In this document: one piece after another, positions 6,238 through 31,954 of the stretch
How the letters are laid out: each line of letters starts with the position of its first letter
Position numbering within the stretch: the stretch's first letter is position 1
Assembly (NCBI RefSeq): GCF_025370785.1
Contig: NZ_JAMXFA010000001.1
Coordinates: 299,902-337,490, forward strand
Source: Laspinema olomoucense D3b
GTDB taxonomy: Bacteria > Cyanobacteriota > Cyanobacteriia > Cyanobacteriales > Laspinemataceae
Length of the DNA stretch: 37,589 nucleotides
Reading direction: 5' to 3'
The notes under the pieces: model-generated
Databases searched by the model: none
The model's input: the letters and a program-made list of their open reading frames with translations, nothing else
Told to the model about the DNA's origin: nothing
Program-made: the position numbers and the translations under genes

Positions 6238-7210
6238 AATGGGCAAATTTGTCTGGACGAGCCTATGGCAACTGATGATGTCCAAACTCGCCCCGCGTAA
6301 TCAAACTGGAGAATACATTCGTCCCATCAGCGAGTTTAGAAATTCCGTCGGAACCCAACCCGAAAACCCCTATCCCCCAGCTAAGGAACGGTATCGCCTG
6401 TATGTGGGATTGGGTTGCCCTTGGGCGCATCGGACCCTGGTGGTGCGATCGCTCAAAGGATTAGAATCGGCCATTTCCGTTGCCATTGTCTCCCCCTCTC
6501 CCGATGCCGGAATCTGGGTCCTGGATGAACCCGAATACGGCTGTCAAACCCTCCCGGAACTGTATGCGATCGCCCGTCCCGGATATCAAGGACGCTGCAC
6601 CGTTCCGGTCCTGTTTGATACCCAAACCCAGACCATTGTCAACAATGAAAGTGCTGAAATTATTATGATGCTCAATTCAGAATTTAATGAATTTAGCACT
6701 CATCCAGAACTCAATTTATATCCCGAAAAATTCCAAGACAAAATAGAATACTGGAACAATAAAATTTACCCTGCCATTAACAATGGCGTCTATCGCTGTG
6801 GATTTGCTCAAAGTCAAACCGCATACAACACCGCCTGCACGGAACTGTTTAATACCTTAGATGAAATAGATGCAGTTTTGGCGACTAATCGATACTTATG
6901 CGGCGACCAATTAACTCTAGCTGATGTGCGGCTATTTACCACATTATTTCGTTTTGATATTGTTTATCACGGACTCTTTAAATGCAATAAACGCCGCATC
7001 CAGGACTATCAAAACCTCGGACCCTATCTCAGGGATATCTATCAACTCCCGGGAGTAGCAGACACTTGTAATCTTGATAGTATTAAACGAGACTATTACG
7101 GTAATCTTTTCCCCTTAAATCCCGGTGGAATTATTCCATTAGGACCAACTATCACCAACTTACAGGAGCCCCACCATCGCGAGGTTTTAAGCCATTCTCT
7201 TAGTTCATAG
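6238..7210 (+). CDS. Xi-class glutathione transferase / glutathionyl-hydroquinone reductase (YqjG/ECM4 family).
   Basis: CPWAHR active-site motif. It is colinear with E. coli YqjG from the MGKF.W... N-terminus to the C-terminus. The ORF tracker extends it to 6092 via a GTG, but the family alignment supports the ATG at 6238. Confidence 0.85.
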
Positions 7211-9314: not shown

Positions 9315-9827
9315 TCAACGATTTTGAAAAAGCTCTTCAACCGACTTCATCGGCAAATATAGCTTCATCGGCTCCTCATTAAATTGCTTAAAGCCGTATT
9401 TGATATAAAAGCTCAACGCTTTATCATTCAAGGCTTTGACAATGACAGCGATCGATGCAACTTGCATGGCAGCATCTAAATACTTTTGAAGGGCATTTAT
9501 CAGTAACAGTTCACCCAAACCCTTGCCTTTTTGCTCATTATCAACCGCGAGACGACCTAATAGAGTGGCCGGTAATGCTGGATACCGGGGTAATCGTTTA
9601 GCAAAGTTTTCTTCCAAGGCTGCCACATTAACCGTGTAAGAAGAGAGTGTATAGTAACCTAAAACATCCATCTTCGGCTCATCAATTAAAACAAATACAG
9701 TGGAGACCCGGTTTTTCAGGTCTTGAGAGGCTTGTTGTCGGATGTAGGTATCTAAACTTTCTTCTCCACAGCAAAAGTTGGAGCGGATATGGGTTCGACT
9801 CTCAAGCAGGTTGATTTTAAGAACCAT
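9315..9827 (-). CDS. GNAT-family acetyltransferase toxin of a type II TA pair (TacT/KacT/AtaT-like).
   Basis: 170 aa with the 'FCCGEESLDTYI', 'LGRLAVDNEQKGKGLG' and 'SFYIKYGF' motifs. Its ATG overlaps the antitoxin stop (TAATG). Confidence 0.85.
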   Translation of the reverse strand: MVLKINLLESRTHIRSNFCCGEESLDTYIRQQASQDLKNRVSTVFVLIDEPKMDVLGYYTLSSYTVNVAALEENFAKRLPRYPALPATLLGRLAVDNEQKGKGLGELLLINALQKYLDAAMQVASIAVIVKALNDKALSFYIKYGFKQFNEEPMKLYLPMKSVEELFQNR

Positions 9828-10114
9828 TAGCCCGACATCACCTGTTTGTACCGTAAAGCTGCTGATTTTAAAGCATCATTAGGTTTCGGAGGAGTGAGAA
9901 TCGCATCCACAAACGCTTCACTGTCTTCCCGACTTAGCTTGAGAGTTTGGTGATGCTCAATCACCCTGTAGGCTTCTGCTTGAATAGCTGCCACCACAAA
10001 ATCTGTCAGGGTTCGTCCTTGTAAATCAGCAGCCTTCTGCACAAGAGCCTTAGTTTCCTGGCTGATACGAGCTTCCAGCCGCGCTGAGGATTTGGAATCC
10101 GTTGGAGGAGTCAT
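9827..10114 (-). CDS. DUF1778 (ribbon-helix-helix) antitoxin, TacA/KacA-like partner of the GNAT toxin.
   Basis: 95 aa; 'RLEARISQETKALVQKAADLQGRTLTDFVVAAI' is the DUF1778 signature. GGAG lies 9 nt upstream of the ATG, and the gene is translationally coupled to the toxin. Confidence 0.85.
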   Translation of the reverse strand: MTPPTDSKSSARLEARISQETKALVQKAADLQGRTLTDFVVAAIQAEAYRVIEHHQTLKLSREDSEAFVDAILTPPKPNDALKSAALRYKQVMSG

Positions 10115-10389: not shown

Positions 10390-11199
10390 TTATCCTTGAC
10401 CGTCAGCAAAGCCCGGATATAAGGTCATCCCGCCATCGACGAAGATGGTTTCTCCATGTACATAGTCTGACTCATCCGAGGCTAACCAGACGGCAACTTT
10501 GGCGATATCTTCGGGAACGCCAATCCGTTTGTAGGGAATCAATTTGAGCAGTGCGGCTTCGTCTTCGGGGGTATCCCAGGCATCTTCATTAATGGGAGTT
10601 TTAATGGCACCGGGGGCAATGCCATTGACGCGGATTTTGTGGCGGGCAACTTCTTGGGCGATACTTTGCATAAACAGTTTGATTCCGCCTTTAGAGGCGG
10701 CATAGTTGGAGTGACCGGCCCAAGGTATCACTTCATGGACGGAACTGATAAAGATAATTTTACCGGCAGCGCGCGATCGCCCTTCAACGATACCCCGGCG
10801 CATAAATTCTTTCACCGCTTCTCGGGTACAGAGAAATGGGCCTGTGAGGTTGACGTCTATGACTTTTTGCCATTGCGCTAGGGTCATATCTACAAGATTT
10901 GCATCTTGCTGAATTCCTGCATTATTGATTAAAATATCAATTGTACCAAACTGTTCACAGAGTTGAGAGAAGATTTTTTGCACATCCTCTTCTTGGCTGA
11001 CATCCCCTTGAATGGCGATCGCCTCCCCGCCCTGGGATGTGATTTCGTCAACCACTTTCTTTGCCCCTTCCGGACTGCTACGATAGTTCACAACTACTTT
11101 CGCCCCAGCCTTTCCCATTCCCAAGGCAATTCCGGCACCAATTCCCGAACTTGAACCCGTCACCAAAACCACTTGATTTTCTAAAATTTTTCCATTCAT
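10390..11199 (-). CDS. SDR-family oxidoreductase, glucose 1-dehydrogenase-like.
   Basis: TGSSSGIG cofactor motif, NNAG, and the S...YxxxK catalytic triad (SSVHE...YAASK); 269 aa. Confidence 0.85.
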   Translation of the reverse strand: MNGKILENQVVLVTGSSSGIGAGIALGMGKAGAKVVVNYRSSPEGAKKVVDEITSQGGEAIAIQGDVSQEEDVQKIFSQLCEQFGTIDILINNAGIQQDANLVDMTLAQWQKVIDVNLTGPFLCTREAVKEFMRRGIVEGRSRAAGKIIFISSVHEVIPWAGHSNYAASKGGIKLFMQSIAQEVARHKIRVNGIAPGAIKTPINEDAWDTPEDEAALLKLIPYKRIGVPEDIAKVAVWLASDESDYVHGETIFVDGGMTLYPGFADGQG

Positions 11200-11414
11200 C
11201 GGCTATTCTCCCAACGCGCAAGGATATTTGAGGATATTAAATTCTGCTTTAGTTTAGGAGGCGGTTCTGTGATTCTGGAACCGCCTACAGATAGAGATGG
11301 ATGCGACAATTCCCGGGAAATTGGGCAAATTCCTCCCTCGTGATTCGGAAATCCGGAGTCAATGCATTAAGATTTCATGTAAAGTTGTGTAACACTGACA
11401 TTTTGCACCTGTGG

Positions 11415-11617
11415 CAACAACCGGCGGGGCAACAACCGGCGGGGCAACAACCGGCGGGGCAACAACCGGCGGGGCAACAACCGGCGGGGGATAAATCCCC
11501 CGCCTCATAGCTAAAGTCGGTTAAAACCGACTAAAAAGCCCACGGTATCAGACTTGCAGTCGGTTTTAACCGACTTAAGTTGTTAGGCGGGGGTTTGAAC
11601 CCCCGCCGGTTGTTGCT
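11415..11617. repeat. Nested palindromic element. Five tandem copies of the 15-mer CAACAACCGGCGGGG, then four hairpins in mirror order, ending with the inverted 15-mer.
   Basis: Tandem copies at 11415-11489. Hairpins ggcggggg/cccccgcc (11483-11504), agtcggtt-aa-aaccgact, agtcggtt-tt-aaccgact and ggcggggg/cccccgcc (11587-11608), followed by ggttgttgc (the reverse complement of gcaacaacc). Confidence 0.7.
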
Positions 11618-11668: not shown

Positions 11669-12931
11669 ATGCTCCCAATTTGGATTGCAACAGTAGCGTG
11701 GGGACTCGGTTCTATTCTATGGGCGGAACTGGTACGAGATTTGTATCATGCTTTTGCCCATGTTTGGCAACCTCTCTATCGCTTGCACGTTTGGCATCAT
11801 CGCGTTTTTCGTCCGAATCTCACCCCAGCGAGTGAAGAGATTTATCAACAAGCGCATTGGCGCAATGACGTACCCGAGGCCCTGGTGATGCTGGGGTTTG
11901 GGCTGTTGTGGTGGTTAGGGGCCTATCTGGTTCTTCCGAGTTACCATTGGGTTGCTGGGATTGGTTGTCTTTATACCCTCAGCTTTTTAGGCAGTGCGAT
12001 CGCCCGGGGTTCGGGAGTTCCAGGGGCCGATCGCCTCACGGATTTGACTCACCAACCGGGTCCTTTTGCCACTCCACCCTCGCGATGGTTTGTGAATCGT
12101 CCCTACCATTGGCGACACCACTTTGATAACCAAAATGCTTACTTTTGCGGGACGTTTACTTTTATAGACAAACTTATGGGAACTGCACTTTCCCTCAAAG
12201 GCAAAACCGTAGCGGTGACTGGGGCCTCTGGAACCCTGGGGCGATCGCTGTTGTTGCATCTCCATGAAGCAGGGGCCAAAGTTATCGCCCTCACCTCTGG
12301 CAACGAGGCAGTCGCCTTAACCCTAGAGTCAGAAACCCTGGAGGTGAATACCGTTACCTGGCAAATCGGTCAAGAAAATGACTTAGCGGCGTTATTTGAA
12401 AAGGTCGATATTCTCATCCTCAATCATGGCATGAATGTCAATGGCGATCGCACCCCAGAGGCGATCGCCACTTCCTATCAAGTCAACGCCTTTTCTGCAT
12501 GGCGTTTGATGGAACTATTTTTCACCACCGTTCGTACTAATCAAGACATCGCCCGCAAAGAAGTCTGGGTTAACACATCCGAAGCAGAATCCAATCCTGC
12601 CTTTAGTCCCCTGTACGAACTCACCAAACGCACCCTTGGGGATTTAGTCACCTTGCGCCGATTAGATGCACCTTGCATCGTTAGAAAATTGATTCTTGGC
12701 CCCTTTAAAAGCAACCTCAATCCTATTGGGGTCATGTCTGCCGATTGGGTTGCTAAACAAATCGTCAAACAAGCTAAAGCGGATAATCGGAACATCATCG
12801 TCACCATTAATCCCCTGACTTTTATTACCTTTCCCATCAAAGAACTGTTGAACTCAGTTTACTTTAAACTGTTTAGCCGTCCAGGGATTAAGGTAAGCCA
12901 ACCCCCAGAAACAAACCACTCCTTGCCCTAA
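11669..12931 (+). CDS. Bifunctional fatty-acid hydroxylase/sterol-desaturase-like membrane domain fused to an SDR dehydrogenase.
   Basis: N-terminal half has three histidine boxes (HAFAH, HVWHH, HWRHH) in hydrophobic segments. C-terminal half has TGASGTLG and SDR-like catalytic residues. 420 aa. Confidence 0.8.
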   Translation: MLPIWIATVAWGLGSILWAELVRDLYHAFAHVWQPLYRLHVWHHRVFRPNLTPASEEIYQQAHWRNDVPEALVMLGFGLLWWLGAYLVLPSYHWVAGIGCLYTLSFLGSAIARGSGVPGADRLTDLTHQPGPFATPPSRWFVNRPYHWRHHFDNQNAYFCGTFTFIDKLMGTALSLKGKTVAVTGASGTLGRSLLLHLHEAGAKVIALTSGNEAVALTLESETLEVNTVTWQIGQENDLAALFEKVDILILNHGMNVNGDRTPEAIATSYQVNAFSAWRLMELFFTTVRTNQDIARKEVWVNTSEAESNPAFSPLYELTKRTLGDLVTLRRLDAPCIVRKLILGPFKSNLNPIGVMSADWVAKQIVKQAKADNRNIIVTINPLTFITFPIKELLNSVYFKLFSRPGIKVSQPPETNHSLP

Positions 12932-12989: not shown

Positions 12990-15110
12990 TAATCCCCGAC
13001 TCAAAACCAACAATCCCGCCGGTATTTCTACCAGCGGGATTGCCTGTTATTTTGCTTTATTAAAAAGACCTAACGGCCTGTCTTATCAGCACCTAGCTCG
13101 GTGCGCTTTCTTATGTTTTTAATATAACTGAATTGTCCAGGAAAGTTTATACCTCTAAGGATAGAACCTGTTGCTACCTCTGGGGAGCATCTCTAAGCTA
13201 CTTCTCCCTATAAACACTCAGCCTTGAGGATGTGAGCTTTTACTCCTACTCAGGGATAAAATCTCCCTCAAAATCAACAATCCCGCCAGAAGATTTCTAG
13301 CGGGATTGCCTATTATTTTGCTTTATTAAAAAGACCTGACGGCCTGTCTTATAAGCACCTATCTTGGTGCGCTTTCTTATGTTCTTAATATAACTGAATT
13401 GTCCGAGAAAGTTTATCCCCCTAAAGATAGAACCTGTTGCTACCTCTAGGGATAAGCGCCCACCCTTTTAGGAACTCCTTCATCAGGCATTCACGGTTTT
13501 AAAGTCCCTGTGCTCTTCAGCCCGGGTTGGGGGCTTTGTTCCTGTAATTGCACCCTTAAATTTGTCGGCTTTTACTGGGATTAACCAGAAAATTCCTGGG
13601 TGAAAATCAACAATCCCGCCAGAGGATTTCTAGCGGGATTGTCTGTTATTTTAATTTATTAAAAAGACCTGACGGCCTGTCTTATCAGCACCTATCTCGG
13701 TGCGCTTTCTTATGTTCTTAATGTACCCGAACTCTAGGGCAAAGTTTATCCCCCTACAGATAGAACCTGCTTCTACCTCTTCCGGTAGCCTCTTGGTAGC
13801 AACGACACCTCCCCGAGATTGCGGTTGGGAACATAAAACTATCAACTCCTAGAAACCAACAATCCCGCTAGAAGATTTCTACCGGGATTGTCTCTTATCT
13901 TGATTTATAATCTGGGCTTACTAAAAAGGCCGAGGGCCTGTGTTATGAGCACCTATCTCGGTGCGGTTTCTTATGCTCTTACTTTATCTGAAGCTTGAGG
14001 GAAAGTTTATCTATCTACAGGTAGAACCTGCTTCTCCCCTTCCAGACGCCTCTTAGTAGTAATAAACACACTGCTAAATTGCTGTCTGAGAACAGAAATC
14101 ATCAACTCCTCAAAATCAACAATCCCGCCAGAGGTTTTCTAGCGGGATTGTCTCTTATCTTGATTTATAATCTGGGCTTGTTAAAAAGGCCGAGGGCCTG
14201 TGTTATGAACACCTATCTTGGTGCGGTTTCTTATGCTCTTAATATAGCCGAACCTGGAGAGGCGGTTTATCTATCTACAGATAGAACCTGCGGCTACCTC
14301 TTCTAGCGGGCAAGGACCCTCTCCACTGGCGATCGCCTGGGGCAATGCCAGTCAACCCCTCAAAATCAACAATCCCGCCAGAGGTTTTCTAGCGGGATTG
14401 TCTCTTATCTTGATTGATTAAATCGGGTTACTAAAAAGACCTGGAGGTCTGTGTTATGAGCACCTATCTCGGTGCGGTTTCTTATGTTCTTACTTTATCT
14501 GAAGCTGGAGGGAAAGTTCATCTATCTACAGGTAGAACCTGCTTCTCCCCCTTCCAGACGCCTCTTAGTAGTAATAAACACACTGCTAAATTGCTGCCTG
14601 AGAACAGAAATCATCAACTCCTCAAAATCAACAATCCCGCCAGAGGTTTTCTAGCGGGATTGTCTCTTATCTTGATTTATAATCGGGGCTTACTAAAAAG
14701 GCCGAGGGCCTGTGTTATGAGCACCTATCTCGGTGCGGTTTCTTATGCTCTTACTTTATCGGAAGCTTGAGGGAAAGTTTATCTATCCACAGGTAGAACC
14801 TGCGGCTACCTCTTCTGGTAGAGAATTATTGTCCCCTTATCGAGGCATTTCACTAAACCTCCCTTTCACTCGATTTAAACTGTATAGCATACCCTACAAG
14901 GAAACCCTAAAGACTAACAATCCCACCAATGTTGCCACAGGTGGGATTGTCTCTTAATCTATATTTTTTAAAAAGACCAGGGGTCTATGTTATGAGCACC
15001 AGAATCTCGGTGCGGTTTCTTATGTTTTTAATGTATCTGAATTTTTTAGAAGATTTATCCCTCTACCGATAGAACCTGCCTCTGTTCCCGGGGATAACCT
15101 GTGGTGGTTC
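12990..15110. repeat. Tandem array of eight units (about 240-330 bp). Each has a conserved core of roughly 160 bp with three hairpins, plus a variable tail of 70-160 bp. Candidate structured-RNA gene array, or ssDNA hairpin/origin array next to the primase gene.
   Basis: Hairpin A starts near 13010, 13277, 13611, 13860, 14120, 14362, 14633 and 14920: ACAATCCCGCC, a 12-nt loop, then GGCGGGATTGT. The last copy carries the compensatory variant CCCACC...GGTGGG. Hairpin B varies as GGCC-gag-GGCC, GACC-tgga-GGTC, GACC-agg-GGTC and aagac...gtctt, so pairing is kept while the sequence changes. Hairpin C is GCACC-tatctc-GGTGC followed by GGTTTCTTATG. No ORF is conserved across the units. Confidence 0.8.
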
Positions 15111-15341
15111 AAATTTGGGTCTGGTCCTGGTCCCACTCGGACCCTATTTGTCATCCATTGCCGCGATCGCCACAATAATCCATGCAACAATTCCTGCCAA
15201 CTCGGGCTTAATCTCGGATACCATCGACCTCTAGGGACCTTTAATATTAGAAACCGCTATAAATAGACCTGAAAATCGGGTCTCTCCCTCCAGTTGTGAT
15301 TGAGTCAGAAACCCGACTTTAATGCAAAATTCTCCCTAAAA

Positions 15342-17807
15342 TTAAGGATTATGCCACTTTAAACCCGTCAAAAATGTGCCTTGTTCATCCCCGCCTTTTT
15401 TCGCTTTTGGAAACATAGACAGGAGACGAACCGGGACCTGATTTAGGGTTTTGCAATGCCGATCGCTGGCAGAGGGTAAGTCATACCACAGCAGTTTCTC
15501 CCGAGCGCGATCGCTGACTTCTACCTGTAAAATCCCCGTATCCTGATACCATTGCCGCAACTTTTGCCAAATCTCTTGGACATAAACCCGAGAATCTGGG
15601 TCCTCCACTAACCCCGAATCCTTGACAAATTGCCACAAATGTTCCGAAGCGCATTGGATTTGGGTCATCGCTTCTTGGGTAGGACTATAGTCAATCCCAT
15701 CACGCATCAACCGTTGTAACGCCTCCAAGAGGCGGTTCAAATAAGCAGGCAGCACTTTGGATTTTAAAAACTCCGGGTCATATTTGAATCGGGGATCCGC
15801 TGGCAATTCCCCGCGTCGGGGGTTGGGGTTGACGGCAAAAGTTTTAGTAAACGGCAACACCGCATAGCGACTGCGAATTGCTTCCATGACTCCCGCTAGT
15901 TCCGGGATATCGTTCCAATTAAAGATAAACACCGCATTAATCGCCGTTTCATAATCATCTTTGCCTTTGCGTTCAATCACAAAGGACCGATCGCCGGTAA
16001 TGGCAATTTTCAAGCATTGCAGGCGGTCCAGGGCCTCAGCATTGCGATTTTCTGAGGGCCAATTCACCCGGGACCCTTCCAATCGGGCAACGGGAAACAA
16101 CCGTCCGCGATCGGCTTGTTCAAAGGCTTCCACGGAAACCGAGGTCAATCCCTGATAGCCATACAGCATTGCTGTGACTTCCCGCAAACTATCCTTCCCA
16201 TTGTTGCCATCCCCTTTGGCAAGTAATGCTTTAACCATTCGTCCTTTTAACCGGCGGACCGATTCTAAATCCAGGGATGCCGCAATGGTTTTTAGGAAAA
16301 TATCCCGATATTGGGGTTCCAGACATTCCAGGAGACGATCGCAATCCGTCGGATCCGCCTCCGGGTCATACGTCACCAAAGGTTGATACAGATAAAAATG
16401 CTGGCGGGGGTCATGGGGGACCAGTTTCCAGGAGGGCTGGCCCTTGCGAGTAAACGAGAGTTGGAGAACCCCATTGGTGCAATTGAGTCCTGGGGGATTC
16501 ACCCGTCCCGGGGCGATCGCAAACATCAATTTCACCCATTCCAGGGCTTTCTTCACACTGCTGGAACTGGCGTAAGGATAGCGAATCTGCCCTTTAACAT
16601 CAATGGGAAAGGAATTGCAAAATTGCGTAATCCGATAAAGTTCTACGGCATTCGGGGAGGCTTCGTAGTAGGTCCCCTGCCATGCATAGAGGGTATTGTT
16701 GACGCAAATCCACGGGCGATCGCCATAAAGGAACTTGACAATCGCCTGGTTAAACTCCACCACCGGAAAAAAGCTATCGTAACTCTCCGTTTCCAGAGTC
16801 TGGGAGTTCCGCTGAGTCCCTTGGCGAATCACTCCCTCTAACCGTTGAATCAAATCTGAGGGAATTGCCGAATTTTCCAGCATTTCCCGAATATCGCCCT
16901 TTTCCGGCAACTCGGGATCAATCTGCGTCGGGTCCAATTCCAAACAGGGAACGCCCACTTTCGCTGCTGCTGCCGCCACCTTCGCCGCCTTTTTCCGCCC
17001 AGTTTCATCGCGATCGGGGAGGACGGCGATCGTTGCCTTCTCATTGGCATGACGCAAGCGAATCAAAAAACTCTCGATTTCCACATCCGTCCAGGCGCTA
17101 CCTTGAAACGTCACCGCAGCTAACCCCAAAGTTCGGGCAATTTCCACACAGCCTTCCCCTTCCAGCAATAACAACACGGGAAACCCTTCCACAACACGGG
17201 CGCTGGCTGCTAATGCCTCCGTTTCCCGATAGGCTTTCCAGGGGTCATTGCCTTTACTCCAAATCGGCAATCCATCCTCATTCAGGTGACATTGGCGAAA
17301 GGTTTTTTTATGACCTTTGCGCTGTTTGGGGTCCAGCCATTCAAACCGATACACCACCTGAGTCTCGCTGTAGTGGTAACGGATTTCCACCGCATGATTC
17401 GGGACCCCTTTCGGCTGAAAGGAGAGTTTTTGGGATTTAGGCGGGATACCGGGTTGGCGCAACCTTGCTAAAACCGGCTGTCCCTCGGGGAAGAGGGCGG
17501 GTTTAAAGGATTTTTGGGCGGTTTTTTGCCGGGTTGATCCCGGGGAAATACTTGTGGGGCGATCGCCCAAGGTGGCGCGAATGTCTTTACATTCGCACCC
17601 ATTCCAGCATTGATAAGCCCCGCTTTGGGGATCAACCGTTAGATTATTTCCCTGACAGACTGGGCAAATATAGCGATTTTTCTTTCCAGCCACGGGTTCT
17701 AAGGTTTCTACCCAGTTGAGCATATTAAATGGACTCCCACTGGCAACTTTGACAGATGCAGACAGGAATTCAGCGCTGATGCTGGCATCACGGGTAGAAT
17801 TGAACAC
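15342..17807 (-). CDS. Primase/replication protein of the P4-family or CyRepA type: N-terminal zinc finger, Toprim-like domain, C-terminal P-loop NTPase (D5_N/primase-C).
   Basis: CPVCQG...CWNGCEC zinc ribbon. Toprim acidic motifs (LLLLEGEGCVE, VLPDRDETGRKKA). Walker-A-like GDGNNGKD inside a phage/plasmid primase C-terminal domain. GTG start with AAGGAG 6 nt upstream. 821 aa. Confidence 0.7.
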   Translation of the reverse strand: MFNSTRDASISAEFLSASVKVASGSPFNMLNWVETLEPVAGKKNRYICPVCQGNNLTVDPQSGAYQCWNGCECKDIRATLGDRPTSISPGSTRQKTAQKSFKPALFPEGQPVLARLRQPGIPPKSQKLSFQPKGVPNHAVEIRYHYSETQVVYRFEWLDPKQRKGHKKTFRQCHLNEDGLPIWSKGNDPWKAYRETEALAASARVVEGFPVLLLLEGEGCVEIARTLGLAAVTFQGSAWTDVEIESFLIRLRHANEKATIAVLPDRDETGRKKAAKVAAAAAKVGVPCLELDPTQIDPELPEKGDIREMLENSAIPSDLIQRLEGVIRQGTQRNSQTLETESYDSFFPVVEFNQAIVKFLYGDRPWICVNNTLYAWQGTYYEASPNAVELYRITQFCNSFPIDVKGQIRYPYASSSSVKKALEWVKLMFAIAPGRVNPPGLNCTNGVLQLSFTRKGQPSWKLVPHDPRQHFYLYQPLVTYDPEADPTDCDRLLECLEPQYRDIFLKTIAASLDLESVRRLKGRMVKALLAKGDGNNGKDSLREVTAMLYGYQGLTSVSVEAFEQADRGRLFPVARLEGSRVNWPSENRNAEALDRLQCLKIAITGDRSFVIERKGKDDYETAINAVFIFNWNDIPELAGVMEAIRSRYAVLPFTKTFAVNPNPRRGELPADPRFKYDPEFLKSKVLPAYLNRLLEALQRLMRDGIDYSPTQEAMTQIQCASEHLWQFVKDSGLVEDPDSRVYVQEIWQKLRQWYQDTGILQVEVSDRAREKLLWYDLPSASDRHCKTLNQVPVRLLSMFPKAKKGGDEQGTFLTGLKWHNP

Positions 17808-18591
17808 GATGGGCTCCTTAACTGAGGGTTTACAAGATACCAGGGCGTTCCACGCCTAAACTGGGATTTTCAGGGAATGGTCAAATTGAATCAATAGGGC
17901 GATCGCCCGTCTTACCCAGACTGGCAATAGCGAACTGTCTTACGGGTAAATACGGGGGGATTCCCTCCCAACGCGCCCTTATCGTTTAGGGTCTGGCATG
18001 GGGACTCATGGATCATCGGGGACCGTTTCCAGCCCCTTTGTCTTACAGGTTCTGCGTCGAATGCTCTAGAATTGCATAATCGCAATCGAACATAAGATAA
18101 TTGCAAAGATTACAAAGGGGTCTCTCCTGATCGGTTCTCCAGTACCACGGGAAAAAATAATACCACTTTTGTCCGAGTCTCCACCATAAAAATAAGATAA
18201 AGTCTCGGTCCTTTTTCCTAGCCAAATTAAGGCCCTCTCGGGACCCTCTTCCTTCACGGTCCGCACTCTGCAATCCCCATCCCTGGGACTCCCCAGGCAT
18301 CGATCAGTAATCCGGAATCTGCAATGCGATCGCCTTCTCCCGGGGGTCCTTCTCTGCGGTATCTCCACCCCAGCGATCGGGCTTTCATCTCACTTTCATC
18401 CGCAGCAAGTTTGCTGATAGTGATTTGCCTTCCCATTCAGTTCCCCTCCGGTCCCCTCCCCTTGCCAAGGTAGGTCTGTTTCATTCTCAAGGCCAAATTG
18501 ATTTTTGTGTTGTCGCTAACCTTTGTCTGGCGGGGGATACAGACTGCTTTTCCTAGTTGCGAGCCTCAAAAGTAGGAAATAAGGTCGAAAA

Positions 18592-18893
18592 CCCTTGGTC
18601 TGTAACGCTTACGGTATCGGGGAAATTTTAGAATGAAACAGCCCTACCCCTCAGAAGGAGGGTATTTACCACCCCGCCCCTTCGGGGCACCCCTCCAGAG
18701 GAGGGGAATTTACCACCCCGCCCCTTCGGGGCACCCCTCCAGAGGAGGGGAATTTTGGGGCATATTCCCCTCCCTTGGAGGGGTGCCCCAAAGGGGCGGG
18801 GTGGTTAGTTTAAACTTAAGAAATCAGGCCGAAAACTCTTGTTCCGTAAAGCTTACGGGGTAAGGAAAATTTTAGAATGAAACAGCCCTACCC
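18592..18893. repeat. Composite repeat. Two roughly 65-bp direct repeats flank two direct copies and one inverted copy of a 44-bp hairpin-rich unit.
   Basis: Flanks at 18592-18650 and 18826-18893 share '...ttacgg...ggaaaattttagaatgaaacagccctaccc'. The inner unit 'accaccccgccccttcggggcacccctccagaggaggggaattt' occurs directly twice (18668-18755) and as a reverse complement (18764-18805). Confidence 0.65.
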
Positions 18894-31187: not shown

Positions 31188-31814
31188 GGGTATTCCAACA
31201 AATAAATCATCCATATCCGATGCGATCGCACCTAACAAGACACTCTTAGCCCGCGCAGGCGGGCTTCGTCCGTGTAGCCTCCGGGCTTGACGCTGTGGGG
31301 CTTTTTGGCGGTTTTATTTGTTGGAGTTCCCTAATTCCCCATCTGTTGCCCTCGCCGGGGTCCGGCGAGGACTTTCAGAAGGCTGCTTATTCAAGTAATA
31401 ATGCTTATAAAAAACCGGATTTTTGGCGAATTGCTAACAAATGTAACAGAAAAGATTGCAGGAAGTAAATCTCTGTAAAGTTTATTAAACAAAGGGTTGC
31501 ATCTCAAAAATTTGTGTTAGTTTATAAATATGACGCGAGCAGGAAATAAAACTTCAACGCCAAACCAGTTTTTGAGATTAGAGCTCTGCGTCATCCCGCT
31601 CTAATCTGCCCGTAGTGAAGCAGCGGCGAGCATCCCAGCAAAAAGGTGGTGCTTCTGTCTAAGAAAAGTTAGAACTAGAAGCCAAAACTTTGAGTCTGGT
31701 ATAGACTAAGTGGATGCCAACACCAAAAATTTACTGCGTGTTGTTTGTAAACCTTAGTAATTGTTAACCCCACCGTACATCAAGCTGAAAATTAATCTCG
31801 TCAATTTACAGATT

Positions 31815-31856
31815 AAAAGGGTCTAGTCGCCGCCGACTGGACCCTTTTAGTTTTGG
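31815..31856. terminator. Bidirectional-looking intrinsic terminator hairpin.
   Basis: GGGTCTAGTCG-ccg-CCGACTGGACCC with AAAA on the 5' side and TTTTAGTTTTGG on the 3' side. It lies about 105 nt downstream of the aminotransferase stop on the minus strand. Confidence 0.45.
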
Positions 31857-31872
31857 CATTTGTCATTTATCC

Positions 31873-31954
31873 TTGGTCATTGGTTGTTGGTCATTTGTCG
31901 TTGGTCATTTGTCGTTGGTCGTTGGTGATGACCCATGACCAATAACAAATGACC
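31873..31954. repeat. Tandem copies of a 14-mer (TTGGTCATTTGTCG) adjoining an inverted copy, forming a long imperfect palindrome.
   Basis: Read directly: ttggtcattggttg, ttggtcatttgtcg, ttggtcatttgtcg, ttggtcg, ttggtgatgacc, then catgaccaataacaaatgacc. Confidence 0.6.

Follow-up and report, generated by a model that had tools for sequence, protein, structure and literature searches.

The locus and its eight repeat units

The window analysed here, a 37,589-nt stretch of the genome of Laspinema olomoucense D3b, contains an array of tandem repeats between a gene for a fatty-acid-hydroxylase/short-chain-dehydrogenase fusion and a gene for a primase-helicase of the cyanobacterial plasmid Rep type. 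We predict, with a probability of roughly 0.62, that these repeats are eight sibling genes for small RNAs, encoded on the minus strand and each its own transcription unit. The prediction draws on the repeats, their strand-specific pairing, a conserved box, a terminator-like end, synteny and plasmid relatives, from which we infer transcription, the RNA ends and a function.

Repeat finding and alignment identified eight in-register units from 12996 to about 15120, with a unit period of 250-333 bp across the array (part of it was picked up by Tandem Repeats Finder as a 261-nt period). A covariance model, R1, was built from 59 copies from other genomes, with zero window sequence, and was run over the whole window with filters off. 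Its full-length matches number exactly eight; they score 123-151 bits (E about 1e-26 to 1e-32), and every one is on the minus strand. No ninth full-length match was found in the window, where the remaining hits are the palindromic hairpin A on the opposite strand. The eight tandem units of the initial annotation are thus borne out by the alignment and by a model free of window sequence. The annotation's division of each unit into a core of about 160 bp and a tail of 70-160 bp is replaced by a conserved part of about 215-228 nt and a truly variable spacer of 24-120 nt (0-146 nt elsewhere).

The features are as follows. Starts of the predicted RNAs were taken from an invariant CA 6-7 nt past the -10 box, and the 3' ends are approximate. 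Values of z refer to the minimum free energy (MFE) fold.

12996..15119, minus strand: whole array, eight transcription-unit-like repeats
13003..13114, minus strand: unit 1, predicted RNA of type a; -10 box TATATT at 13121-13126 (minus); R1 match 12996-13140 (minus), 149.4 bits; three-hairpin MFE fold, z = -6.9
13270..13380, minus strand: unit 2, predicted RNA of type a; -10 box TATATT at 13387-13392 (minus); R1 match 13263-13406 (minus), 150.8 bits; z = -6.2
13603..13713, minus strand: unit 3, predicted RNA of type a; -10 box TACATT at 13720-13725 (minus); R1 match 13596-13739 (minus), 150.3 bits; z = -7.0
13852..13974, minus strand: unit 4, predicted RNA of type b; -10 box TAAAGT at 13981-13986 (minus); R1 match 13845-14000 (minus), 127.7 bits; z = -5.6
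14112..14234, minus strand: unit 5, predicted RNA of type b; -10 box TATATT at 14241-14246 (minus); R1 match 14105-14260 (minus), 135.5 bits; z = -5.6
14362..14485, minus strand: unit 6, predicted RNA of type b; -10 box TAAAGT at 14492-14497 (minus); R1 match 14355-14511 (minus), 137 bits; z = -6.1
14624..14746, minus strand: unit 7, predicted RNA of type b; -10 box TAAAGT at 14753-14758 (minus); R1 match 14617-14772 (minus), 136.3 bits; z = -5.7
14910..15023, minus strand: unit 8, predicted RNA of type c; -10 box TACATT at 15030-15035 (minus); R1 match 14903-15049 (minus), 123.4 bits; z = -4.9
11669..12931, plus strand: fatty-acid-hydroxylase/short-chain-dehydrogenase fusion, convergent with the array; constant left border in all genomes
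15342..17807, minus strand: primase-helicase of 821 amino acids, cyanobacterial plasmid Rep type; upstream of the array on the same strand

Type b (units 4-7) is set apart by a 12-nt insertion in the linker between hairpins B' and A' (primes denote hairpins read on the minus strand), and units 4 and 6, like units 5 and 7, are recent duplicates of each other. Hairpin A' has one G·G mismatch in unit 4, and in unit 8 it carries the compensated pair of arms CCCACC/GGTGGG, in agreement with the G>A and C>T double change reported earlier.

Between the primase stop codon and unit 8 lies a further hairpin, AGACC..GGTCT followed by ATTTAT (15268-15290, minus strand), with the same stem as B'. It could terminate the primase gene or be what is left of a ninth unit, though R1 detects no ninth.

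The hairpins fold on the minus strand

In an alignment of 46 array units from nine genomes in minus orientation, RNAalifold predicted three hairpins only, C', B' and A'. Standard pairs fill 98.2% of the pair cells on the minus strand, compared with 88.3% on the plus strand. The higher figure was reached by 0 of 500 shuffles, and sliding the partners by 1-3 columns leaves only 36-52% standard pairs. There are 118 G·U pairs on the minus strand and 5 on the plus strand. The middle pair of B' is GC in 10 units, GU in 21 and AU in 14, the closing pair of C' is GC in 24 and GU in 22, and three pairs of A' vary as UA 18/UG 14/CG 10, GC 32/AU 7/GU 5 and AU 22/UA 21. In a broader alignment of 76 family copies, which was fitted to the model and hence leans towards structure, 96.7% of cells are paired and 7 pairs have changed on both sides. 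The minus strand gives the more stable fold in 60 of 67 copies, and the three hairpins are the MFE fold for all eight window RNAs (z-scores -4.9 to -7.0). As RNA, B' stems that bear a G·U pair reach -6.2 kcal/mol and fall among the other variants; as DNA their energy is a marginal -1.5 kcal/mol, and the G·T-bearing 5-bp stem fills about 49% of the ensemble.

Three conserved hairpins with compensatory changes, as described in the initial annotation, are therefore present, but they do not fold equally well on the two strands. It had also proposed a plus-strand small RNA downstream of a TATAAT, with hairpins B and C and an end in GGTTTCTTATG. On the plus strand, the 5-bp stem B is interrupted at its central pair by an A·C mismatch in 21 of the 46 units, and the closing pair of stem C is lost in 22 of 46; both positions are G·U on the minus strand. 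This plus-strand RNA is ruled out because nearly half of the units would carry that central mismatch in so short a stem. The TATAAT, said to occur in copies 4-7, is present in units 4, 5 and 7 and missing from unit 6. It sits inside the 12-nt insertion exclusive to type b; types a and c lack it, as do the plasmid and orphan classes described below. We thus rejected the plus-strand RNA on both the strand asymmetry and the lack of conservation of its promoter. The 3' arm of hairpin A, previously read as GGCGGGATTGT, is AGCGGGATTGT, so that the bases concerned are mismatched (C·A) on the plus strand and form a U·G wobble on the minus strand.

A promoter-like box, a putative transcribed segment and a terminator-like end

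In the minus sense each unit opens with a spacer, after which come some 70 conserved nucleotides (with CTACCnnAAGAGGTAG, AGCAGGTTCTATC and GATAAAC among them), a -10 box, the RNA segment and a U-rich tail. The box is a hexamer, TAnA(T/G)T, followed after 6-7 nt by CA. The RNA segment starts with AUAAGAAA(G/C)C, then hairpin C', UnAUAA(G/C)ACA, hairpin B' and UUUUUA, and ends with an AU-rich linker, AUAA(C/G)AG, hairpin A' (14-16 bp, GC-rich) and UUGAUUUU.

Across the 59 non-window copies, which include all three classes of the family, the first two positions of the box are T and A in 59/59, the third may be any base, the fourth is A in 58/59, the fifth is T or G and the sixth is T in 59/59. 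Eight different hexamers are represented among them. At the predicted start site, C is found in 53/59 and A in 55/59. A free third position combined with fixed -10 positions would be the signature of a promoter, not of RNA structure. At the other end, the GC-rich A' of 14-16 bp with its UUGAUUUU-type tail on the minus strand has the form of a terminator, although the tails are weaker in plasmid copies.

Variability among the 76 copies peaks in the B' loop (1.7 bits) and at the top of A' (1.15 bits). Conserved parts include the lower A' stem (0.1-0.2 bits), the B' stem, the 5' single strand (0.4 bits) and the linker between B' and A' (0.5 bits). Siblings within the array share the 5' AUAAGAAA, a motif like AUAA(G/C)ACA before each hairpin and the B'-A' linker, and differ mainly in the B' loop and the top of A'.

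A minus-strand small RNA with the variable tail as its 5' seed had been suggested as well. The minus-strand RNA is supported but the seed is not, since the spacers are short (0-146 nt), poorly conserved and upstream of the box. Because the invariant box is directly upstream of hairpin C', the spacer is most likely untranscribed DNA between units. A possible NtcA-type site (GTA-N8-AAC) was rejected: it is 18 nt from the -10 box, while known NtcA sites lie 20-23 nt from it, and it is absent from units 1 and 2.

Relatives in other genomes and on plasmids

A pattern scan of one genome per species yielded 40 loci; related loci from other genomes and replicons are given L-numbers below. All true family members are from Laspinema, Oscillatoria acuminata or Phormidium-type cyanobacteria, and pattern hits outside cyanobacteria are chance hairpins. 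We distinguish three classes. Class I comprises the units of arrays, which have 3-8 units (8 in the window, and 4-7 in a tally of other genomes). Class II copies are single, lack C', and come from plasmid-like contigs and from each of the two plasmids of O. acuminata PCC 6304. Each is embedded in about 330 nt of conserved non-coding sequence with a sharp end at the terminator, and thus no conserved promoter is present on the opposite strand. Class III (orphan) is a single chromosomal copy downstream of a NAD kinase gene, found in five genomes.

The stretch between the -10 box and the terminator can be aligned across the three classes. Farther upstream, class III is dissimilar to both others, and classes I and II are alike over only about 60 nt. 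The extent of this alignment is the strongest argument that the functional unit is a promoter box plus a transcribed segment.

The array is syntenic in at least eight other Laspinema/Phormidium genomes, with the order everywhere being a short-chain dehydrogenase/reductase (SDR) gene, the hydroxylase-reductase gene, the array, the primase-helicase gene and a flavoprotein gene. Orthology of the first and of the last unit holds in all of them (orthologues of unit 8 close the array in other genomes), and types a, b and c keep the same order across genomes with 72-89% identity at 4-fold degenerate sites. In one Laspinema lineage (L013, 5441-8000; L023, 960-3240) two genes, one for a DoxX-like membrane protein of 142 amino acids and one encoding 396 amino acids, occupy about 2.3 kb between the array and the primase gene, and another lineage has a 1.6-kb gap there. 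Contiguity with the primase gene is thus not obligatory.

In one metagenome bin the locus is found on three contigs (L006, L007 and L025) in as many versions, which have 5, 6 and 6 units. The bin is probably a strain mixture, and the versions show that unit number changes fast.

A Rep gene with a DUF5906 domain accompanies the class II copies of the two PCC 6304 plasmids and of a 27-kb contig. Class II copies are often 1-2 kb from ParA, adjoin short tandem repeats in 3 of 12 loci (L001, L002 and L004), and on two replicons are separated from rep by about 9-10 kb. No family copy is present on three Nostoc plasmids whose rep genes are homologous, and a pattern with hairpin A unconstrained recovered no true members from IMG/VR or from JGI metagenome contigs. 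Judging from these searches, the RNA family is rare and lineage-restricted; it is also undescribed and absent from Rfam.

Conservation of the array

Relative to L013, identity at 4-fold sites of the flanking gene is 0.79 and that of the RNA regions of orthologous units is 0.83-0.93; relative to L010 the values are 0.72 and 0.79-0.86. Spacers decay to 31-81% identity whereas RNA regions hold 74-93%. Constraint on the RNA region is visible but moderate.

Coding potential, known families and other identities

No conserved open reading frame (ORF) was identified. Any single ORF is common to at most 16 of 46 array units, as had been noted for the window units, and the ORF from a conserved plus-strand ATG is 4 amino acids long in units 1, 2 and 5 and 4-101 amino acids long in plasmid copies. 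A protein-coding repeat or a type I toxin-antitoxin system was rejected, as there is no conserved toxin ORF opposite or beside the RNA.

A search with Rfam models found no family at gathering score in the array or in 14 related loci. At a permissive E-value every match in the array stayed below threshold, the best being to ctRNA_pGA1 (32.8 bits, gathering score 45) on the plus, and thus wrong, strand. No tRNA or tmRNA was found, and PADLOC identified no defence system.

A transposon end is not supported, as no adjacent transposase gene and no terminal inverted repeats were seen. Neither a transposon terminal repeat nor a decaying coding repeat, both named at the outset as grounds for refutation, is supported. 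A guide-RNA scaffold of the TnpB/IscB type was rejected because there is no adjacent nuclease gene and the conserved upstream block is non-coding. An origin of transfer or recombination site was rejected by reasoning, given that loop length varies, the spacer is palindromic and pairing is strand-asymmetric. Iterons or a centromere were rejected for the units given the 250-333 bp period and the compensatory and G·U-asymmetric changes.

Neighbouring genes and other features of the window

The primase-helicase has Pfam domains D5_N and DUF5906 (SF3 helicase) and matches the PHROG annotation 'DNA primase'. Its motifs include a zinc ribbon (CPVCQG...CWNGCEC), TOPRIM-like LLEGEG and DRDETG, and the P-loop GDGNNGKDS. 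The array had been placed immediately downstream of a primase gene. As the primase-helicase gene is on the minus strand, the array does lie 3' of it in the minus sense; the gene upstream on the plus strand is not a primase.

Over its full length the protein is 40-46% identical to the presumed Rep of about 50 cyanobacterial plasmids. These homologues have 950-1100 amino acids, so that the 821-residue chromosomal form is without the C-terminal 130-280 residues, a region that has no Pfam match. Short Rep forms (807-814 amino acids) occur in other assemblies with ATTAGCCA repeats just downstream. The closest paralogue (56% identity, 952 amino acids) is on the 27-kb Laspinema contig, with the class II copy at least 9 kb away. 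Between genomes the primase-helicase retains 97-98% amino-acid identity compared with 76-81% identity at 4-fold sites. Thus, it is under purifying selection and is a working gene, not a relic.

Iteron-like repeats are found directly downstream of rep in L058 (four 26-nt repeats spaced 54 nt), L043 (ATGACTGTCAAA repeats), L045, and L059 and L061 (both with ATTAGCCA repeats), and pCC7120 epsilon has an 11-nt periodic repeat downstream of rep. The array occupies, in the chromosome, the position held by iterons in these related replicons.

Upstream of the primase start, three GTAAGAC motifs (17920-18050, minus strand) resemble the TGTAAGTC iterons of pOSCIL6304.01 (L001, 6394-6481), though their count is not significant across the window. 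Also upstream of the primase region, at 18568-18893, two 82-nt direct repeats surround nested GC-rich 44-nt hairpin repeats (CCCCTCCAGAGGAGGGG, CCCCGCCCCTTCGGGGC). This looks like a small palindromic element of the miniature inverted-repeat transposable element or repetitive extragenic palindrome type.

On the other side of the array, the divergent intergenic region between the SDR gene (10390-11199, minus strand) and the hydroxylase-reductase gene (11669, plus strand) contains a perfect 15-nt tandem repeat, GGCAACAACCGGCGG, in 5.1 copies (100% matches, 11413-11489). A TacA-like antitoxin gene followed by a GNAT acetyltransferase gene (9315-10114, minus strand) forms a TacAT-type toxin-antitoxin arrangement. 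Farther away are about 15 heptamer repeats (TTTGTCA/TTGGTCG) at 31852-31954 and a lone match to CRISPR-DR28 at 31247-31270 (36.4 bits, gathering score 35). The same family matches L013 at 6443-6466, and the window match is probably a false positive because there is no repeat array.

Comparison with known systems

The initial annotation compared the array to tandem small-RNA genes such as NsiR1. The idea is supported for the minus strand only, and its plus-strand version is contradicted. In Nostoc sp. PCC 7120, NsiR1 is present in 12 tandem copies upstream of hetF, each with its own promoter, and the copies at the edge are divergent 'siblings' while central copies are near-identical (PMC9045159). 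The array resembles NsiR1 in being a set of cyanobacterial chromosomal direct repeats, each a small-RNA gene with a conserved upstream motif, with the RNA genes and their promoters predicted in the Laspinema case. There is no homology of sequence or structure between the two, and no Rfam family is reached at gathering score here. The Laspinema RNA, at 113-126 nt and with three hairpins, would be about twice as long as NsiR1 (about 60 nt). Unlike NsiR1, it has plasmid-borne relatives and its array is beside a plasmid-type rep gene. Laspinema is not known to form heterocysts.

A second comparison is with RNAs that control plasmid copy number. Replication of the Synechocystis plasmid pSYSA requires the primase-helicase CyRepA1 and an adjacent locus encoding asRNA1, an abundant RNA of 153 nt with three stem-loops that was likened by the authors to ColE1 RNA I (PMC9978351). 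Like ColE1 RNA I, counter-transcribed RNAs and asRNA1, the Laspinema RNA would be about 100-150 nt long with 2-3 stem-loops and a terminator, and it has a plasmid link to a primase-helicase Rep. Its variability is concentrated in loops, as would be expected of specificity determinants. However, no target transcript, promoter or ORF is conserved on the opposite strand, and rep leaders show no complementarity to the RNA; a test for the antisense pairing that defines copy-control RNAs was negative. The Laspinema RNA genes are downstream of and co-directional with rep, or far away from it, whereas asRNA1 of pSYSA lies upstream, in antisense orientation to ssr7036. Nor do copy-control systems offer a parallel to eight chromosomal copies.

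Sites for plasmid primases and partition proteins were also compared. In RSF1010/R1162 the plasmid primase RepB' recognises ssiA and ssiB, 40-nt elements within oriV that occur singly, one on each strand. These sites share with the array a strand-specific hairpin with a conserved lower stem (partly a matter of ascertainment), proximity to iterons and a plasmid-type primase. They differ in that the Laspinema units are 250-330 bp long, are repeated eight times, have promoter- and terminator-like features and contain two further short stems that tolerate G·U. Iteron and centromere arrays (sopC of F consists of 12 x 43 bp) are likewise tandem direct repeats by a replication or partition gene with an inverted repeat in each, but their period is 8-54 bp as against 250-333 bp. 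Unlike in sites for proteins that bind double-stranded DNA, the arms of the inverted repeats in the Laspinema units co-vary and pairing is asymmetric between strands. We would describe the array, on sequence grounds, as a new small-RNA family in sibling-array form, the unusual feature of which is its link to plasmids and to a chromosomal Rep gene.

Proposed mechanism and alternative explanations

Each unit is predicted to have a promoter without a -35 element, formed by the conserved upstream block and the invariant box TAnA(T/G)T. Transcription would begin with the A of CATAAGAAA and terminate within the U-rich run that follows A', giving an RNA of 113-126 nt with C', B' followed by UUUUUA, the AU-rich linker and A'. 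Such RNAs could act by base-pairing or protein binding through their conserved single-stranded parts and variable loops. A member of the RNA family may have been acquired along with a rep gene, and amplification would then have produced the diversified siblings. With lower confidence, we infer that the most likely function is that of a regulatory RNA of plasmid lineage kept beside a domesticated Rep gene.

Several observations weigh against eight separate small-RNA genes. The box has no recognisable -35 element and its sites were not called as promoters by a simple sigma-70 scan. The box motif is quasi-palindromic (TTAnnnTAA), and thus does not on its own fix the strand. Conservation extends upstream of the box by about 70 nt in the array and up to about 170 nt in plasmid copies, so the RNA could exceed the predicted length. 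The tail after A' in plasmid copies, UUGCGUUGGGG, is a poor U-tract. The search pattern by which the family was first found specified the sequence of the lower stem of hairpin A, and hence the invariance of the base of that stem is in part an ascertainment effect. Compared with L006, the closest genome, RNA regions (0.86-0.90) are about as similar as 4-fold sites (0.865). An RNAduplex scan of the window for targets gave nothing consistent above background, and k-mer complementarity to three rep leaders (5' regions) was no better than for shuffled sequence. A literature search found nothing on the hairpin sequence, nor any transcript, start-site or 3'-end data for this lineage.

Of the alternatives, the least unlikely is that hairpin A, perhaps with B and C, forms in single-stranded DNA from the unwound minus strand and is a priming or loading signal for the primase-helicase, repeated as an origin-type element. 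The near-invariant lower stem of A (0.1-0.2 bits) with a top and loop that vary with compensation has the form of a site read by sequence below and by shape above, as in ssi sites. The pairing is strand-specific, the array has the position of the iteron-like repeats downstream of rep in related replicons, and some plasmid copies adjoin short tandem repeats. We nevertheless regard this as unlikely. It does not explain a -10-like box with a CA start at fixed spacing, nor the UUUUUA after B' and the U-rich run after A'. The 5-bp stems with G·T pairs are marginal as DNA, yet are kept through GC, GU and AU states. In addition, the orphan class is near a NAD kinase gene with no rep nearby, on two replicons a distance of 9 kb or more lies between the plasmid copy and rep, two genes separate array and primase gene in one lineage, and there is no GC-skew switch at the locus.

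An RNA that is longer or processed would account for the conservation upstream of the box. It would extend over about 210 nt in the array to about 330 nt in plasmid copies, or be read from the primase gene, with which the array is co-directional, and then cut, and the box would be an internal motif. An upstream hairpin E' (CTACC..GGTAG) with a few compensated variants, e.g., CTACT/AGTAG, fits such an RNA. However, hairpins D' and E' are not kept in all unit types, RNAalifold shows no consensus structure upstream of C', and the orphan class is dissimilar there to the other two. The spacers contain no conserved box and some are only 0-5 nt long, and a strong 14-16-bp hairpin with a U-run in each unit should stop read-through. 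This explanation is less likely again.

It is very unlikely that the array is functionless, i.e., the amplified leftover of a plasmid module, or a stack of insulators or bidirectional terminators, held by tandem duplication and gene conversion: copy number does range from 3 to 8 among close relatives with recent duplicates in the window, the similarity to the closest genome shows no excess over 4-fold sites, and hairpin A is flanked by an A-tract and a T-tract as in bidirectional terminators and in unit 1 faces a convergent gene upstream, but types a, b and c keep their order across genomes, each of three separate stems has stayed paired by way of G·U intermediates, neither the box nor the start site varies among 67 copies (59 non-window and 8 window) of three classes, and spacers decay where RNA regions do not.

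A further proposal concerns what the locus does. The array and Rep gene could be a domesticated plasmid replicon module that still acts on replication, either as a battery of control RNAs or as a set of priming signals. In the first version, diversified control RNAs would tune or exclude plasmids of the same Rep type, both those already resident and those coming in, as an RNA-based incompatibility or immunity array. In the second, repeated priming or loading signals would let the chromosomal Rep homologue start chromosomal DNA synthesis. We consider a module of either kind quite unlikely.

Significance of the array

If the eight small-RNA genes are transcribed, the array would be the second clear case of a tandem array of sibling small RNAs in cyanobacteria after NsiR1, and would add a new RNA family. 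Its history would be unusual, in that the same RNA gene is single on plasmids and at one chromosomal site and is present in 3-8 copies beside a chromosomal Rep gene. To our knowledge, pSYSA is the only plasmid with a primase-helicase Rep of this kind to have been studied so far, and vector tools are scarce. The culture-collection strain O. acuminata PCC 6304 would provide a tractable entry to the control of such plasmids in filamentous cyanobacteria, and work on the family could also reveal the role of the domesticated Rep gene in the chromosome.

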